The position numbers were made by a program, and so were the translations under genes. From a virus, in UHGV virus genome UHGV-1394707: DNA of 32,637 nt; one strand, given 5' to 3'. The notes below the pieces were generated by a model. That model did not search any database and was not told the origin of the DNA. It was given only the letters and a program-made list of their open reading frames with translations. The stretch's first letter is position 1. Each line of letters begins with the position of its first letter. Positions 5,857 to 12,667 of the stretch are shown here, piece after piece.

Positions 5857-6156
5857 ATGGTGGCTGACATGAAGTGTAATCGTAAGCGCTGGTCACGCGA
5901 AGACCGGGAATTTATCGAAGCCAACGTCGGGAAAATGACCGTTGAAGAAATGGCGGAAAAACTGAAAGTCGCCACAACCGCCCTCCGGGCACATGCCAGA
6001 AGGCACGGAATATCATTGTGTGTATACCGAATCAGTGAACACGACAAATATTTATGTCGTGAACTTTATAAAGAAGGACTGGATATTCATGTCATTGCCC
6101 GAAAGATGGAATTAAGCAATCGAGCTGTATCCAGCATTGTATACAGCGGATATTAA
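5857..6156 (+). CDS. Hypothetical early protein with possible HTH
   Basis: 99 aa; ..MTVEEMAEKLKVATTALRAHARRHGIS.. looks like a helix-turn-helix; start ambiguous (ATG 5857 or 5869). Confidence 0.5.
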   Translation: MVADMKCNRKRWSREDREFIEANVGKMTVEEMAEKLKVATTALRAHARRHGISLCVYRISEHDKYLCRELYKEGLDIHVIARKMELSNRAVSSIVYSGY

Positions 6157-6175
6157 TTAACAGGAGCTTTAATTT

Positions 6176-6700
6176 ATGGCTAAACCAGCAAAACGTATCA
6201 AAAGCGCCGCAGCGGCTTATGTGCCACAAAACCGCGATGCGGTGATTACCGATATTAAACGCATCGGGGATTTACAGCGCGAAGCATCACGTCTGGAAAC
6301 GGAAATGAATGATGCCATCGCGGAAATTACGGAGAAATTTGCGGCCCGGATTGCACCGATTAAAACCGATATTGAAACCCTTTCAAAAGGCGTTCAGGGA
6401 TGGTGTGAAGCGAACCGCGACGAACTGACGAGCGGCGGCAAAGTGAAGACGGCGAATCTTGTCACCGGTGATGTATCGTGGCGGGTCCGTCCACCATCAG
6501 TAAGTATTCGTGGTATGGATGCAGTGATGGAAACGCTGGAGCGTCTTGGCCTGCAACGCTTTATTCGCACGAAGCAGGAAATCAACAAGGAGGCGATTTT
6601 ACTGGAACCAAAAGCCGTCGCAGGTGTTGCCGGAATTACGGTTAAATCGGGAATTGAAGATTTTTCCATTATTCCGTTTGAACAGGAAGCCGGTATTTAA
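6176..6700 (+). CDS. gam: Gam-like host-nuclease inhibitor (DNA-end binding)
   Basis: 174 aa, same length and position as Mu Gam; RBS AGGAG. Confidence 0.8.
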   Translation: MAKPAKRIKSAAAAYVPQNRDAVITDIKRIGDLQREASRLETEMNDAIAEITEKFAARIAPIKTDIETLSKGVQGWCEANRDELTSGGKVKTANLVTGDVSWRVRPPSVSIRGMDAVMETLERLGLQRFIRTKQEINKEAILLEPKAVAGVAGITVKSGIEDFSIIPFEQEAGI

Positions 6701-8029: not shown

Positions 8030-8320
8030 ATGAATAATGAAACTAAATTTACGCCTAAAGACCTGGATGAAGAACTGGTGAAAGCTAAGATGCTTGAGCG
8101 TATGCGCGATGTTATTGAGACTGCAATCAGTAAAGGCTTTTCTGCGAGAGAGGCCCTTGAAATTATGACACGGGAAATTCATCTCATACGCGACGAAGTT
8201 TTGTTGCATAACAAAAAAGCCCACAACAATATTGTTTGTCGTGAGCTTGGCGTTGATGATTCAGCGGTTATTCCACAGCGTCAGTATCTGTGTGCTCTGA
8301 TGAGAGGTTCCCGGCATTAA
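8030..8320 (+). CDS. Hypothetical early protein
   Basis: 96 aa from ATG 8030 (RBS AGGTGA; ORF track opens at GTG 8015); helical-looking N-terminal 60 aa; C-terminal tail overlaps a convergent - strand ORF. Confidence 0.5.
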   Translation: MNNETKFTPKDLDEELVKAKMLERMRDVIETAISKGFSAREALEIMTREIHLIRDEVLLHNKKAHNNIVCRELGVDDSAVIPQRQYLCALMRGSRH

Positions 8321-8627
8321 CAATATCCTGCCTTGAAGCCCAGAGCTTATTGAGCAGCAGATCAACATACTCATCGGCCTCAAAATCCAGTTCTTCGAAC
8401 GTTTTTCGGTTCTTATAGCTGGCCTGTGTATTTCTGATGATGTCATAAGCATCGTGCATGTTGATAACACCGTTTTCAATCAGCTTAATCATCAGATTAC
8501 CGACCAGCATAAAACCGGTTATACCAAAGAATTTATCCTGGTTATTAACAGGGGTGTCTTTCTGGTTTGTTTCGAAATCTGGGTTTTGTTCATCATCCGA
8601 CACTGTATGTTGTTCTTGTTCAGCCAT
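8268..8627 (-). CDS. Acidic hypothetical protein on the opposite strand (candidate acquired accessory gene)
   Basis: 119 aa with RBS AAAGGA 6 nt before the ATG; about 24 Asp/Glu vs 9 Lys/Arg; GC clearly below the prophage average; the + strand frames across this region look non-coding. Confidence 0.55.
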   Translation of the reverse strand: MAEQEQHTVSDDEQNPDFETNQKDTPVNNQDKFFGITGFMLVGNLMIKLIENGVINMHDAYDIIRNTQASYKNRKTFEELDFEADEYVDLLLNKLWASRQDIVNAGNLSSEHTDTDAVE

Positions 8628-8696: not shown

Positions 8697-9248
8697 ATGA
8701 GTCGCACATCCCTGATTAAATTAATCCATGTCGCCCGTCGGGAGCTACAACTCGACGACGACACTTACCGCGCTTTTCTGATGCAGAAAACGGGCAAAAT
8801 CAGTTGCCGCGAGCTTACGGTTACGCAACTGGAACAGGTGCTCGATGCCATGAAAGAACGCGGCTTTAAGAAGCTGAATAAATACCCCCGTCGCCGCTTT
8901 AAGGAACATGTCACACCCCGCGAGAAGGTGTATAAAATCTGGCAGCAGATGGCAGAAGACGGTTTTATTACCGATGGCGGTGATGTGGCGCTGGATAAAT
9001 ATGTTCAGCGCCTGACCGCGAAACGCAACGGCGGACAGGGCGTTTCCACACTGGCGTGGTGTCATGGCGACACGCTGCTGACAGTCCTCGAAACACTCAA
9101 GCAGTGGCACATCCGCTGTATTCGTGAAGCCTTTTCCCGTCACGGGCTTCCATTGCCGGTCAGTCCGTCCGGTCGTGAACTGCGCGGCTATGATGCCATG
9201 ACGGCGGCTTATGCCCATGCCAGAAAGACACGGAGGATGGCACAATGA
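8697..9248 (+). CDS. gemA: GemA-like early protein
   Basis: 183 aa from ATG 8697 (RBS GGAGG), directly upstream of and overlapping mor (ATGA); same size and position as Mu GemA. The ORF-track extension to 8454 is rejected. Confidence 0.75.
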   Translation: MSRTSLIKLIHVARRELQLDDDTYRAFLMQKTGKISCRELTVTQLEQVLDAMKERGFKKLNKYPRRRFKEHVTPREKVYKIWQQMAEDGFITDGGDVALDKYVQRLTAKRNGGQGVSTLAWCHGDTLLTVLETLKQWHIRCIREAFSRHGLPLPVSPSGRELRGYDAMTAAYAHARKTRRMAQ

Positions 9249-9634
9249 CGGAAGATTTATTTGGTGATTTGCAGGATGACACCATCCTGGCACATCTTGA
9301 CAATCCCGCAGAGGATGCGTCACGCTTTCCGGCACTGCTGGCGGAGCTGAACGATTTACTGCGCGGGGAATTGTCCCGGTTAGGTGTTGATCCGGCCCAT
9401 TCACTGGAGATTGTTGTGGCTATCTGTAAGCATCTGGGCGGCGGTCAGGTCTACATTCCACGCGGTCAGGTTCTGGATTCGCTGATTCGGGATTTGCGTA
9501 TCTGGAATGATTTCAACGGTCGCAATGTTCACGAACTGGCAATCCGTCATGGTGTGACATTTAACACAGTCTATAAAGCCATCCGACGAATGCGGCGTAT
9601 AAAGTATCGTCAGTATTCCCCCCCTTTGTTTTAA
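9245..9634 (+). CDS. mor: Mor, middle operon regulator (Mor/C family activator)
   Basis: 129 aa; MTEDLFGDLQDDTILAHLDNPAED.. and ..FNGRN..TFNTVYKAIRRMRR.. match Mu Mor as recalled; last gene of the early operon. Confidence 0.88.
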   Translation: MTEDLFGDLQDDTILAHLDNPAEDASRFPALLAELNDLLRGELSRLGVDPAHSLEIVVAICKHLGGGQVYIPRGQVLDSLIRDLRIWNDFNGRNVHELAIRHGVTFNTVYKAIRRMRRIKYRQYSPPLF

Positions 9635-9641
9635 ACAGTAA

Positions 9642-9665
9642 AGCCGGTTAATCCGGCTTTTTTTA
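9642..9665 (+). terminator. Intrinsic terminator at the end of the early operon
   Basis: AGCCGG-TTAAT-CCGGCT hairpin followed by TTTTTTT, 8 nt after the mor stop. Confidence 0.75.
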
Positions 9666-9716
9666 CGCCCTCAATATTCTGTTGTGACGATAAAACGTTC
9701 ATGACAGGAGGGCAAC
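9666..9716 (+). promoter_or_regulatory. Candidate Mor-dependent middle promoter region
   Basis: Only non-coding stretch between the early terminator and the first middle-operon gene; -10-like GATAAA near 9688; an activator site would overlap the terminator dyad. Confidence 0.35.
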
Positions 9717-10277
9717 ATGCCTGAGTTTTCCCCTGCATTCCTTCATTCGCTGAATTTCGTTATACGCCCTGATGTTGAAGGTGGCTATGTTAATGATCCT
9801 GCCGACCGTGGCGGCGAAACGAAATACGGTATTTCTGACCGTCGCGACGGTGTTATTGATGGCAAAACCGATGTTAACGGTGACGGAAAACCTGATACCC
9901 GCATTAAGGATTTAACCCGCGAGCAGGCGGCGCAGATCTACTGGCGTGATTACTGGCTGGCGGCAAAGTGTAACGAATGGCCTGATGGCGTTTCCTTATT
10001 CGTTTTTGATGCTGCCGTTCAGCACGGTGTTAAACGCGCGATTCAGATCCTCCAGGCGGCAGCAGGTGTTGATGATGATGGCATCGTCGGTAAAAACACA
10101 CGCGCAGCCGTTCTGCGTGCCGATACTGACTGGCTGCTGTTGCAGTGCTTCCTGCGTCGTTCCCGCTATTACGCAGGGATTATCAAATCCAGTGCCTCGC
10201 AGGGGAAATATCTGAATGGCTGGTTTAACCGTCTGGATCTGCTCGCCAGCGCCTGTCGGGAGGTTCTGCATGGGTAA
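9717..10277 (+). CDS. GH108-family muramidase with C-terminal peptidoglycan-binding domain
   Basis: 186 aa, RBS AGGAGGG; ..VEGGYVNDPADRGGETKYGI.. and ..EQAAQIYWRDYW..FDAAVQHG..DDGIVGKNTRAAV.. are typical of Glyco_hydro_108 + PG_binding_3 proteins. Confidence 0.7.
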   Translation: MPEFSPAFLHSLNFVIRPDVEGGYVNDPADRGGETKYGISDRRDGVIDGKTDVNGDGKPDTRIKDLTREQAAQIYWRDYWLAAKCNEWPDGVSLFVFDAAVQHGVKRAIQILQAAAGVDDDGIVGKNTRAAVLRADTDWLLLQCFLRRSRYYAGIIKSSASQGKYLNGWFNRLDLLASACREVLHG

Positions 10278-10612: not shown

Positions 10613-11035
10613 ATGCAGCATGATTTATTTGAACACGATCCGGCAATTCGCCAGTTAATCGGACATATTGATAACATCCCGGCCCCGGAACTGGAATCAC
10701 GCTGGCCCCGTTCGGTGGTTGATCTGATTGATGTTCTGGAAAACGAACTGAAACGCCAGAACGTCAGCAATCCCCGTGAGCTTGCCCGTAAACAGGCCGT
10801 TGCCCTGTCCTGTTTTCTGGGTGGACGGCAGTTTTACATCCCCTGCGGCGATACGATCCTGACCGCGTTACGCGACGATTTGCTTTACTGCCAGTTCAAT
10901 GGTCGTAACATGGAAGAACTGCGTCGCCAGTATCGCCTGTCCCAGCCGCAGATCTACCAGATTATTGCCAGCCAGAGAAAGCTGCATACACGACGTCATC
11001 AGCCTGATCTGTTCTCACCTGAAAGCCAGAAATAA
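10613..11035 (+). CDS. C: C, late transcription activator (Mor/C family)
   Basis: 140 aa, same length as Mu C; paralogous to the Mor ORF (shared ..FNGRN.. core); RBS GGGGGAAAA. Confidence 0.85.
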   Translation: MQHDLFEHDPAIRQLIGHIDNIPAPELESRWPRSVVDLIDVLENELKRQNVSNPRELARKQAVALSCFLGGRQFYIPCGDTILTALRDDLLYCQFNGRNMEELRRQYRLSQPQIYQIIASQRKLHTRRHQPDLFSPESQK

Positions 11036-11126: not shown

Positions 11127-11645
11127 ATGATGGCGGGGATACCAAAAAAACTGAAAGCCGCACTGCTGGCGGCAACGATTGCCGGTGGCGGTGTGGGTGG
11201 TTATCAGGAAATGACCCGTCAGTCTCTGATCCACCTGGAAAATATCGCTTATATGCCTTACCGCGATATTGCCGGTGTGCTTACGGTCTGTGTGGGACAT
11301 ACCGGGCCGGATATCGAAATGCGCCGTTACAGCCATGCGGAGTGTATGGCTCTCCTCGACAGTGATTTAAAACCGGTTTATGCGGCAATCGATCGTCTTG
11401 TCAGGGTGCCGCTGACGCCATATCAGAAAACGGCGCTGGCAACGTTTATTTTCAACACCGGTGTTACCGCATTCAGTAAATCAACGCTGCTGAAAAAACT
11501 CAATGCCGGTGATTACGCCGGAGCGCGTGACCAGATGGCCCGCTGGGTGTTTGCCGCAGGCCATAAATGGAAAGGACTGATGAACCGTCGCGAAGTGGAA
11601 ATGGCAATCTGGAATATCAGGGGGGCGGATGACCTTCGCCAGTAA
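11127..11645 (+). CDS. lys: Endolysin, GH24/T4-lysozyme type with N-terminal SAR-like segment
   Basis: 172 aa; E-8-D-5-T catalytic spacing in ENIAYMPYRDIAGVLT; N-terminal Ala/Gly-rich weakly hydrophobic stretch KLKAALLAATIAGGGVGGY; same size and position as Mu lys. Confidence 0.85.
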   Translation: MMAGIPKKLKAALLAATIAGGGVGGYQEMTRQSLIHLENIAYMPYRDIAGVLTVCVGHTGPDIEMRRYSHAECMALLDSDLKPVYAAIDRLVRVPLTPYQKTALATFIFNTGVTAFSKSTLLKKLNAGDYAGARDQMARWVFAAGHKWKGLMNRREVEMAIWNIRGADDLRQ

Positions 11646-12015
11646 AAGTTTACTGATGGCAGCCGTGTTTACCGCCGTTCTGTCCGGGGTGTTGTGGCAC
11701 AGGCTGGACAGCACCCGCCACGATAACCAGACGCTGCGCCGTGAATTACAGACGGAGCAACAGGCCCGCCACACTGCTGAATGGTTGTTACACGGTCAGG
11801 AACAGACGATGCAGGTATTTTCCGCTATCCGTGCCGCAAATCGTGCCGCACGGCTGGCAGATGAGACAGAACATCATGATGCAAAAGAAAAAATTACAAC
11901 CGCCATTACTGGTGACAATTGCAGCACTCGTCCTGTGCCTGCCGTTGCTGCTGACAGGTTGCGGGAACTCGAAAAACGCACCCGTGCCATCGGTGGTGAT
12001 CCTGCCCGAAACTGA
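11629..12015 (+). CDS. i-spanin (Rz-like)
   Basis: 128 aa; N-terminal TM helix LLMAAVFTAVLSGVLW, charged coiled-coil-like remainder; overlaps lys 3' end. Confidence 0.7.
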   Translation: MTFASKSLLMAAVFTAVLSGVLWHRLDSTRHDNQTLRRELQTEQQARHTAEWLLHGQEQTMQVFSAIRAANRAARLADETEHHDAKEKITTAITGDNCSTRPVPAVAADRLRELEKRTRAIGGDPARN

Positions 12016-12217
12016 TACAGAACTGACGGAAGCAACGCCCGTTCCGCCCATGCCACAGCCCCTGACGTGGGGAGCATCCCTTCTCTGGAATGCTGACCTG
12101 TTGATGGCGCTCGGGCAGTGCAACCGCGACAAGGCATCAGTCCGGGAACAGGAGATCCGAAGGAAAGAAATTTATGAACGAAGACCAGAACCGGGCGGTG
12201 GCGCTGCTGCTCGCTGA
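11876..12217 (+). CDS. o-spanin (Rz1-like lipoprotein), overlapped arrangement
   Basis: Alternate frame starting inside the i-spanin gene at MMQKKK; lipobox LLTGC; Pro-rich mature region; runs past the Rz stop. Confidence 0.6.
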   Translation: MMQKKKLQPPLLVTIAALVLCLPLLLTGCGNSKNAPVPSVVILPETDTELTEATPVPPMPQPLTWGASLLWNADLLMALGQCNRDKASVREQEIRRKEIYERRPEPGGGAAAR

Positions 12218-12368
12218 ACTCTGGCAGGGGGATACCCGTGATATTCCCCGCCCGGCGGCGTATGACCCGCCTGTATTGTGTGCCGGTTGCGGTCGTGAGC
12301 TGCGGCCTGATGTGCTGAGACAGCAGCCGATGGCGAACTACTGCCACTGGTGCCGTGGAGCAGAATAA
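12174..12368 (+). CDS. Small C4 zinc-finger protein (TraR/DksA-like)
   Basis: 64 aa, RBS AGGAAAG; CAGCG..(17)..CHWC. Confidence 0.6.
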   Translation: MNEDQNRAVALLLAELWQGDTRDIPRPAAYDPPVLCAGCGRELRPDVLRQQPMANYCHWCRGAE

Positions 12369-12667
12369 TGGATTTGATTTCAGTTTTAGCGTTATGGCCT
12401 TACCTGTTGCCTGTTGTGGCCGGTGGGGCCGTCTGGGCGATGCGTCGTAGTTTTGCCAGCACCGAGCGTGTGGAGCGTCTTGAAAACCGGATGACCGAAA
12501 TGGAAACCCGCTACGCCAGCATCCCTGGCACAGAAGATGTACACGAAATGCGCCTGCGAATTGCAGAGCTGTCCGGCGATATCCGGGTGCTGTCCCAGCG
12601 GGTGCAGTCATTTTCCCATCAACTGGAGCTGCTGCTTGAAAACGCAGTAAACCGGAGTAATTCATGA
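12368..12667 (+). CDS. Membrane-anchored coiled-coil protein, positional equivalent of Mu gp25 (reported as a releasin for the SAR endolysin)
   Basis: 100 aa from ATG 12368; single N-terminal TM LISVLALWPYLLPVVAGGAVWAM then helical charged region; sits in the lysis cassette. Confidence 0.6.
   Translation: MDLISVLALWPYLLPVVAGGAVWAMRRSFASTERVERLENRMTEMETRYASIPGTEDVHEMRLRIAELSGDIRVLSQRVQSFSHQLELLLENAVNRSNS

Follow-up and report, generated by a model that had tools for sequence, protein, structure and literature searches.

To our knowledge, bacteriophage Mu is the only tailed phage that has been reported to lack a holin. In its holin-less lysis system, genes 19 and 20 are dispensable, gp19 and gp20 have been shown not to be holins, and the DUF2730 protein gp25 has been described as a releasin (PMC9239132). 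Among other Mu-like phages, an enzyme that joins a GH108 domain to a PG_binding_3 domain is listed as the DUF2730-paired endolysin in nine Vibrio phages (Chamblee et al. 2022, Table S1). Enzymes of the same two-domain family, ElyA1/ElyA2, are the sole endolysins of unrelated, non-transposable Acinetobacter phages and have demonstrated muralytic activity (PMC7188820). Here we describe a locus at which a GH108 gene and the Mu system stand side by side. The virus genome UHGV-1394707, a stretch of 32,637 nucleotides that we call the window, carries a gene for a GH108 + PG_binding_3 muramidase between the Mu-type activator genes mor and C, and the Mu-type signal-anchor-release (SAR) endolysin, spanins, and releasin follow downstream (Table 1). 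We consider it probable that this gene encodes an intact, soluble GH108 endolysin sitting in the slot that Mu-like phages usually use for their endolysin, and that the window phage has retained it as an auxiliary lysin. Membership in GH108 is already known, since the RefSeq label in Escherichia coli is "glycoside hydrolase family 108 protein", and so is the occurrence of GH108 endolysins in Mu-like phages (Chamblee et al.); apart from Table S1 of that paper, which concerns Vibrio, we found no paper in the literature searched that deals with both Mu-like phages and GH108. In that literature, neither the coexistence of a GH108 lysin with the Mu SAR-endolysin system nor the Mu middle operon as the remnant of a holin-endolysin cassette is described.

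The original prediction, made from the DNA and its translated reading frames, proposed a GH108 domain followed by a PG_binding_3-like C-terminal half, and profile searches bear out both. The protein matches Glyco_hydro_108 (Pfam PF05838) over residues 20-104 (E = 9.3e-25; score 87.4 bits, cutoff 21.2) and PG_binding_3 (PF09374) over residues 107-173 (E = 6.8e-14, 52.3 bits against a cutoff of 24.6), and the motifs quoted at the time, EGGYVNDPADRGGETKYGI and DRRDGVIDGKTDVNGDGKPDTR, are present at residues 21-39 and 41-62. Among the PHROGs, it falls in family 315, annotated "endolysin" (1.4e-51). When compared with sequences in the PDB, the protein matches Neisseria NMB1012 (2IKB, E = 1.4e-20) and Brucella abortus SagA (7DNP, 2.1e-17), followed by the Porphyromonas gingivalis "secretion activator" 2NR7, Sen1395 (6V3Z), and TtsA (6V40). 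The catalytic residues of SagA are Glu17, Asp26, and Thr31 (PMC8334348), and they align with Glu21, Asp30, and Thr35 here. All three are invariant in a 124-sequence alignment and are kept in 130 of the 131 nearest 50%-identity cluster representatives of the protein. The residues with which SagA contacts peptidoglycan (Ile35, Tyr65, Tyr69, His92, and Trp155) are conserved as well, as Ile39, Tyr75, Tyr79, His103, and Trp169. Homologues in Acinetobacter phages are 39-41% identical to the window protein.

An AlphaFold2 model of the protein has a pLDDT of 96 and a pTM of 0.91, and its top Foldseek match is SagA (TM-scores 0.76/0.81), with NMB1012, Sen1395, and TtsA next, all at a probability of 1.00. 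The modelled fold is two-lobed and all-helical, as in SagA, NMB1012, and TtsA. SagA and NMB1012 are thus the best matches in both sequence and structure and share the triad and the peptidoglycan-contacting Ile/Tyr/Tyr/His/Trp set, but they are only 28-32% identical to the protein in structural alignments, the loop that follows their catalytic Thr is shorter and lacks DxDxDG, and SagA serves a type IV secretion system rather than a phage. The Salmonella proteins TtsA and Sen1395 of type 10 secretion have in common with the window protein the fold family, the missing signal sequence, and a dependence on a holin-type route, but they are only 21-25% identical, they are non-lytic, and they belong to a toxin-secretion locus outside any functional phage. 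The gene described here, in contrast, belongs to a complete Mu-type genome, in which mor and C flank it, and its orthologues are followed by holin-like and terminase genes.

A hydropathy scan revealed neither a signal peptide nor a SAR domain nor a transmembrane segment in the GH108 protein. Over 19 residues, its hydropathy peaks at 0.93, with no segment as high as 1.6, as compared with 1.9-2.5 for the releasin and gp20, and its N-terminus, MPEFSPAFLHSLNFVIRPDVEGGY, is without the weakly hydrophobic segment of a SAR endolysin. Since it has no hydrophobic segment, the protein would be soluble and cytoplasmic as made. We conclude that it is a predicted N-acetylmuramidase of the canonical soluble endolysin type.

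Variation in the EGGY motif occurs among orthologues: it reads EGVY in the type found in E. coli PSS-15 (cluster P0002, with 520 member sequences), EGGH in locus L009, and ERGY in Trabulsiella. The orthologues with a variant motif (L005 at 5968-6564, L009, L013, and L014) all retain the catalytic Glu, and a Trabulsiella locus (L015) has a frameshifted copy of GH108.

The position of the gene can be understood from Mu-like relatives. We examined the best 80 of 149 IMG/VR viral contigs, chosen by their gp18-like protein alone, a sample that is biased toward Enterobacterales. In 67 of the 80 loci, the GH108 gene immediately precedes gp18. In most of the sample (57 loci), there is no lysin besides GH108, a holin-like gene is present, and C and GH24 are both missing; 10 loci have two lysins, with GH108, C, and GH24 all present (7 window-like, 1 Mu-with-gp19, and 2 of the type found in the SE11 prophage), and 13 are of the Mu/SfMu type without GH108. 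In the single-lysin loci, the genes that follow GH108 encode gp18, a protein with four transmembrane segments, a putative holin with three, TraR, DUF2730, and then the terminase proteins. A Mu-like prophage of E. coli PSS-15 has a more distant copy of GH108 in such a layout, in the order gemA, a single Mor-family gene, GH108, a gp18-like gene, genes for a 136-residue protein with multiple transmembrane segments and a 202-residue holin-like protein, TraR/DksA, DUF2730, gp26, and terminase; it has no C, GH24, or Rz, and its 202-residue protein matches GTA_holin_3TM below threshold. All full-length loci from Klebsiella, Raoultella, Kluyvera, Brenneria, and Serratia have this layout, as does Trabulsiella on a truncated contig; the GH108 proteins of these six genera are 65-73% identical to that of the window.

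The same arrangement extends beyond the Enterobacterales. Shewanella phage vB_SspM_MuM16-2 and Pseudoalteromonas phage HS6 have GH108 + PG_binding_3, gp18-like, holin-like, DksA-like, and DUF2730 genes in that order, and the holin-like gene of HS6 scores above the Pfam threshold for GTA_holin_3TM (43.5 bits). In Vibrio phage Martha, the order is the same and the endolysin slot is filled by a DUF5675 protein. Thus, the Mu-like GH108 endolysins of these phages, of the Vibrio 1.028.O group, and of the Enterobacterales resemble the window protein in their domain pair, in lacking a secretion signal, and in their slot (downstream of mor and directly upstream of the gp18-like gene, with DUF2730 and terminase later on). 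They differ in that GH108 is the sole lysin and is accompanied by the three-transmembrane holin-like and TraR genes, whereas the window has C, the SAR GH24 endolysin, and spanins instead.

Judged by gene order, the slot between the Mor-dependent promoter and gp18 is the usual endolysin slot of these Mu-like phages. In relatives with one Mor-family activator, the Mor-dependent promoter appears to head the lysis/late operon, so that a change of regulatory tier around the gene would explain why a muramidase gene is found in a "middle" operon. The original prediction saw no obvious role in host lysis for a muramidase expressed in the middle phase; this view is superseded, as the same slot holds the only endolysin in most Mu-like relatives, and on this comparison the puzzle is historical rather than functional.

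To follow the modules around the slot, we typed loci by tblastn (the window, L001-L012, L016, and L020-L099). Among all loci typed, the 202-residue GTA_holin_3TM-like gene is present in 64 of 64 single-lysin loci and in none of the 13 two-lysin loci, and none has both C + GH24 (with or without Rz) and the holin-like + TraR pair. That the two modules never occur together indicates module replacement at this position. The gp18-like protein matches positions 3-75 of phrog_2121 and the 202-residue holin-like protein matches positions 91-273, and because one family joins the two segments, gp18 may be a piece of the putative holin that has become separate or that has a regulatory role. A derivation of gp20 from the holin-like protein was also considered, and the comparison gave no similarity at E ≤ 1e-5. 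The gp18-like gene always follows the endolysin slot (L005, 6566-7783; L017, 3001-3854; L019, 3001-3839; for the window, see Table 1).

Compared with Mu itself, the window has the same mor, Pm, gp18, gp20, C, lys, Rz, and releasin, with proteins that are 83-100% identical, and differs within the middle operon, Pm-gp18-gp19-gp20-C: Mu has gp19 and no GH108, whereas the window has GH108 and no gp19. The gene for gp19, which has four transmembrane segments, is missing from both the window and SfMu, and gp20 is present. As the original prediction held, the gene is located between mor and C, and both flanking frames are Mor-family homologues of the Mu proteins. The dyad and -10 region of Pm are shared with Mu up to about position 9683, and homology returns immediately ahead of the ATG that starts the gp18 homologue. 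The segment in between, for which Mu has ~25 nucleotides, comprises the ribosome-binding site and nearly the whole reading frame of GH108. The start of the gp18-like gene overlaps the GH108 stop (ATGGGTAA). We found no GH108 gene in Mu, D108, SfMu, PhiR68_1, vB_YpM_3, vB_YpM_23, or vB_YpM_Tongde, and its absence from Mu, D108, and SfMu means that it is no standard constituent of all Mu-family middle operons. Over 2.5 kb, the window is ~99% identical to Yersinia phages vB_YpM_5 and vB_YpM_6, whose GH108 protein is 100% identical to that of the window and is annotated as "hypothetical" (vBYpM5_00026 in vB_YpM_5). In the paper on these Yersinia phages, some of which have GH108 and some of which do not, neither burst sizes nor latent periods are given and the gene goes unmentioned.

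The GH108 gene is the first after a predicted Mor-dependent promoter, at the head of the middle operon. A Pm-type dyad, AGCCGGT(T/A)AATCCGGC, with a T-run is found 75-102 nucleotides upstream of the GH108 start in 13 of 13 loci, and this spacing is kept even where an extra reading frame intervenes between mor and the dyad. Such extra frames are variable (L006-L012, L014, and L016; for example, L006 6536-6886 and L009 6381-6890) and encode a membrane protein of ~118 residues or a lipoprotein-like protein of ~170 residues, as morons might. As far as can be read from sequence alone, GH108 follows a Mor-dependent promoter throughout; such a promoter belongs to the middle tier in Mu and apparently to the lysis/late tier in the single-activator relatives. 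A consensus promoter/terminator scan showed no convincing terminator between GH108 and C; the scan also missed the Pm dyad and is therefore uninformative for the Mor-dependent promoter.

The gene has been kept intact next to the Mu lysis system. All 13 two-lysin copies of GH108 are intact, and among their 9 nucleotide haplotypes, 30 codons vary only synonymously and 6 vary with a change of amino acid. Between the window and the SE11 prophage (9717-10277 of the window against 3534-4094 of L004), there are 24 synonymous and 2 nonsynonymous differences, giving a ratio of nonsynonymous to synonymous divergence (dN/dS) of 0.023, and the copy in L029 differs from that of the window at 14 nucleotides and at no amino acid. 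The SE11-type protein occurs in 158 blocks of the assembly collection, and the context is two-lysin at 4 of the 5 places shown. Furthermore, the gp18 allele of Mu-type genomes that have GH108 is 93-100% identical to that of the window, as against 82-86% in those that lack it. These patterns argue for long residence of GH108 in the two-lysin background and for purifying selection there.

At the fifth SE11-type place (L103, 4001-5476), we observe a prophage remnant in which the stretch from gp18 to the baseplate is deleted and GH108 is joined to tail genes (Phage_Mu_Gp48 and fibre). The SE11 prophage (L004 5324-5752; also L100-L102 and L104) has a different GH24 lysozyme of 142 residues with a lipobox-like N-terminus (..LAACGG..), and the next gene is DUF2730, without intervening Rz/Rz1 spanin genes.

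In the reading that we favor, C, its late promoter, the SAR GH24 endolysin, and the spanins would have entered the Mu lineage as a module in place of the holin-like and TraR genes; Mu, D108, and SfMu would further have lost GH108, and the window phage, like vB_YpM_5 and vB_YpM_6, would have kept it. GH108 would be transcribed from Pm upon the appearance of Mor, one regulatory tier before the true lysis genes. Lacking both an export signal and its cognate holin (nowhere does the window encode a homologue of the 202-residue holin-like protein), the enzyme would accumulate harmlessly in the cytoplasm, away from any substrate. Only once the inner membrane gives way, as the SAR endolysin and the spanins drive lysis, would it reach the peptidoglycan, and it would then speed or complete the breakdown of the sacculus. 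With access to the wall restricted in this way, the most likely role of GH108 is that of an auxiliary or back-up lysin, and we put the chances that it plays such a lytic part in the window phage at roughly even.

Several points weigh against this reading. An alignment of the Mu gp18 5′ untranslated region with the window GH108 5′ untranslated region scores 4.5 against a shuffle mean of 3.9, and 35% of the shuffles reach that score; since the alignment is no better than shuffles, the direction of loss or gain rests on comparative arguments only, and the junctions do not decide between a deletion in Mu and an insertion in the lineage of the window. The synonymous divergence (dS) between the window and SE11 is 0.21 for GH108 and 0.54-0.63 for gemA, mor, and gp18. 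From the lower value for GH108, the cassette appears to have been exchanged by recombination among Mu-type prophages, which would make these genomes mosaic, and the signal of purifying selection could then partly stem from another genetic background. In addition, the window phage pairs a soluble lysin with a holin-less lysis system, so that a route of GH108 to the wall is hypothetical and its contribution to lysis is deduced from selection alone. The low dS would also fit a recent gain, in which the GH108-gp18 block was recombined in from a single-lysin Mu-like prophage; the origin of the gene would then differ and its function would be the same. All four combinations of GH108 present or absent with gp19 present or absent occur in Mu-type backbones, which likewise speaks for a gain. 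We regard a recent gain as possible but doubtful, because no candidate donor exceeds 74% identity (among 5.8 billion proteins, none is 74-98% identical to window GH108), the gp18 of the window shares 83-86% identity with that of Mu as against 62-73% with those of single-lysin phages, and the identity of GH108 to its counterparts in single-lysin phages (65-75%) is in line with that of mor (55-65%) and gp18.

The gene might instead be a relic or passenger, either left over from an ancestral lysis cassette or recently recombined in, without function in a phage whose lysis depends on the SAR endolysin, releasin, and spanins. In favor of this, the window lacks the cognate holin-like gene, Mu, D108, and SfMu manage without GH108, Mu genes 19 and 20 can be dispensed with in lysis (PMC9239132), and GH108 at ≥95% identity is found in 8 of 5,426 complete E. 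coli genomes as compared with 41 that have a Mu-type C gene. A functionless gene is nevertheless unlikely given the 13 intact copies, the excess of silent over replacement changes, the wholly silent divergence of L029, and the spread of the SE11-type protein in mostly two-lysin contexts. The nearest neighbors in sequence and structure, SagA, Sen1395, and TtsA, raise the idea of non-lytic wall remodelling in the middle phase, on the model of typhoid toxin secretion by TtsA or the Brucella type IV secretion system served by SagA; TtsA likewise lacks a signal sequence and depends on a holin yet to be identified (PMC13284979), and expression of GH108 would precede that of the lysis genes. We think this very improbable, since the orthologue is the only lysin, beside a holin-like gene and before the terminase genes, in the 57 single-lysin loci, no secretion cargo or system gene lies nearby, and the window phage offers no export route. 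A virion-associated lysin that helps DNA injection through the wall is harder still to credit: some phages do carry muramidases in their virions and the GH108 protein has a peptidoglycan-binding domain, but its gene is in the regulatory/lysis region rather than among head and tail genes, the small two-domain protein is not fused to a structural protein, and Mu, SfMu, vB_YpM_3, and vB_YpM_23 infect without it.

The calcium-site motif of FG-GAP and EF-hand-like loops is DxDxDGxxD. The original prediction saw in the GH108 domain an Asp/Gly-rich insertion resembling a calcium-binding loop, and of this claim the resemblance stood up and the notion of an insertion peculiar to this protein did not. 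The core of the loop, DVNGDGKPD at residues 52-60, fits D-x-[DN]-x-[DN]-G-x-x-D, and the best Pfam match of the loop peptide is FG-GAP, at E = 0.02 and 15.2 bits against a threshold of 22.1 (EF-hand_5 follows at E = 1.7); with that match below threshold, we claim resemblance only. Since the fit to the motif is exact and FG-GAP is the best match, calcium binding by the loop is plausible. Compared with PDB sequences, the loop peptide gave only a meaningless match to a designed protein. The loop hardly varies within the Enterobacterales clade, although identity to the window protein is otherwise only 65-74% there, and in the AlphaFold2 model it has a pLDDT of 93-95. The Asp/Gly stretch is ~12 residues longer than in NMB1012, and none of the solved structures matched has the long form. 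Among the 131 representatives, the segment from Gly38 to Thr67 has 16 residues in 34, 25 in 37, and 30 in 37, and the calcium-site motif occurs in 37; the Mu-like enzymes of Shewanella and Pseudoalteromonas have the short 16-residue form with no Asp/Gly loop. Judged by these representatives, the Asp/Gly loop characterizes a large GH108 subfamily and is not idiosyncratic.

One could further imagine that the DUF2730 releasin, possibly with gp18 or gp20, delivers the GH108 lysin independently of a holin and that the loop then acts as a calcium-dependent switch, so that the enzyme would become active only outside the low-calcium cytoplasm. DUF2730 is conserved beside soluble GH108 endolysins in the single-lysin relatives. 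We consider this combination quite unlikely, but if it were true, DUF2730 proteins would be general endolysin-release factors, and the question raised by Chamblee et al. about DUF2730 beside non-SAR endolysins would become testable through E. coli Mu genetics.

On the reading that GH108 is a retained auxiliary lysin, the window phage would represent a natural intermediate that combines the full SAR endolysin, releasin, and spanin system of Mu with a soluble GH108 endolysin. The middle-operon genes of Mu, gp18, gp19, and gp20, may then be the residue of a canonical holin-endolysin cassette whose place the C, SAR endolysin, and spanin module has taken. Phages vB_YpM_5 and vB_YpM_6 on the one hand and vB_YpM_3 and vB_YpM_23 on the other are cultured phages that differ at GH108, and E. 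coli lysogens also exist, for work on a soluble endolysin in a holin-less phage. For annotation, vBYpM5_00026 of vB_YpM_5 and the matching "hypothetical protein" reading frame of vB_YpM_6 can be renamed as GH108 muramidase.

Table 1. Features of the mor-to-releasin region of the window (positions in nucleotides from the first letter of the window)
Feature	Position	Strand	Evidence and remarks
mor, Mor activator	9245-9634	+	Pfam Mor, E = 5.9e-30; 92% identical to Mu Mor
Pm-homologous region	9627-9686	+	Aligns with Mu 9163-9233, annotated as the Mor-activated middle promoter
Pm dyad AGCCGGTTAATCCGGCT	9642-9658	+	Followed by T-run to 9665; -10-like CAATAT at 9672-9677
Segment of ~580 nucleotides absent in Mu, D108, and SfMu	9684-10262	+	Three-way DNA alignment of window, Mu, and SfMu
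Ribosome-binding site of GH108 gene, AGGAGGG	9706-9712	+	Read in sequence
GH108 + PG_binding_3 muramidase gene, 186 residues	9717-10277	+	ATG start; Pfam, PHROG, and PDB matches
GH108 catalytic loop	9777-9821	+	Codons of Glu21 (9777-9779), Asp30 (9804-9806), and Thr35 (9819-9821)
Asp/Gly-rich loop, Asp41-Asp60	9837-9896	+	Core Asp52-Asp60 at 9870-9896
PG_binding_3 domain, residues 107-173	10035-10235	+	Pfam
gp18-like gene, 76 residues	10270-10500	+	83% identical to Mu gp18; precomputed label PF26867 Phage_Mu_gp18
gp20-like gene, 39 residues, one transmembrane segment	10481-10600	+	95% identical to Mu gp20; hydropathy 2.48; phrog_19823
C, late-gene activator, last gene of middle operon	10613-11035	+	Pfam Mor, E = 8.2e-33; 98% identical to Mu C
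GH24 SAR endolysin (gp22 homologue), primary lysin	11127-11645	+	Phage_lysozyme, E = 1e-37; 99.4% identical to Mu gp22
Rz-like i-spanin	11629-12015	+	98% identical to Mu gp23
Embedded o-spanin	11876-12217	+	Coordinates carried over from the Mu annotation by homology
Mu gp24 homologue	12174-12368		Within the 98-100% identity range of the spanin and releasin homologues
DUF2730 releasin (gp25 homologue)	12368-12667	+	100% identical to Mu gp25

The lysis cassette has its own GH24 SAR-type endolysin at 11127, as originally predicted, and its E-x8-D-x5-T triad and KK motif can be read in the sequence. A CxxC...CxxC pattern is present in the Mu gp24 homologue, whose gene stands in the slot of the TraR/DksA zinc-finger genes of the single-lysin relatives; we do not claim homology between the two, as BLASTP gives E = 0.01 over 28 residues and Pfam gives only a weak NinF match. 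Farther upstream, a minus-strand reading frame of 119 residues (8268-8627) lies among the plus-strand early genes, directly upstream of gemA. Its equivalent is a shorter minus-strand coding sequence in SfMu and vB_YpM_5 and a DUF2513 gene in SE11.

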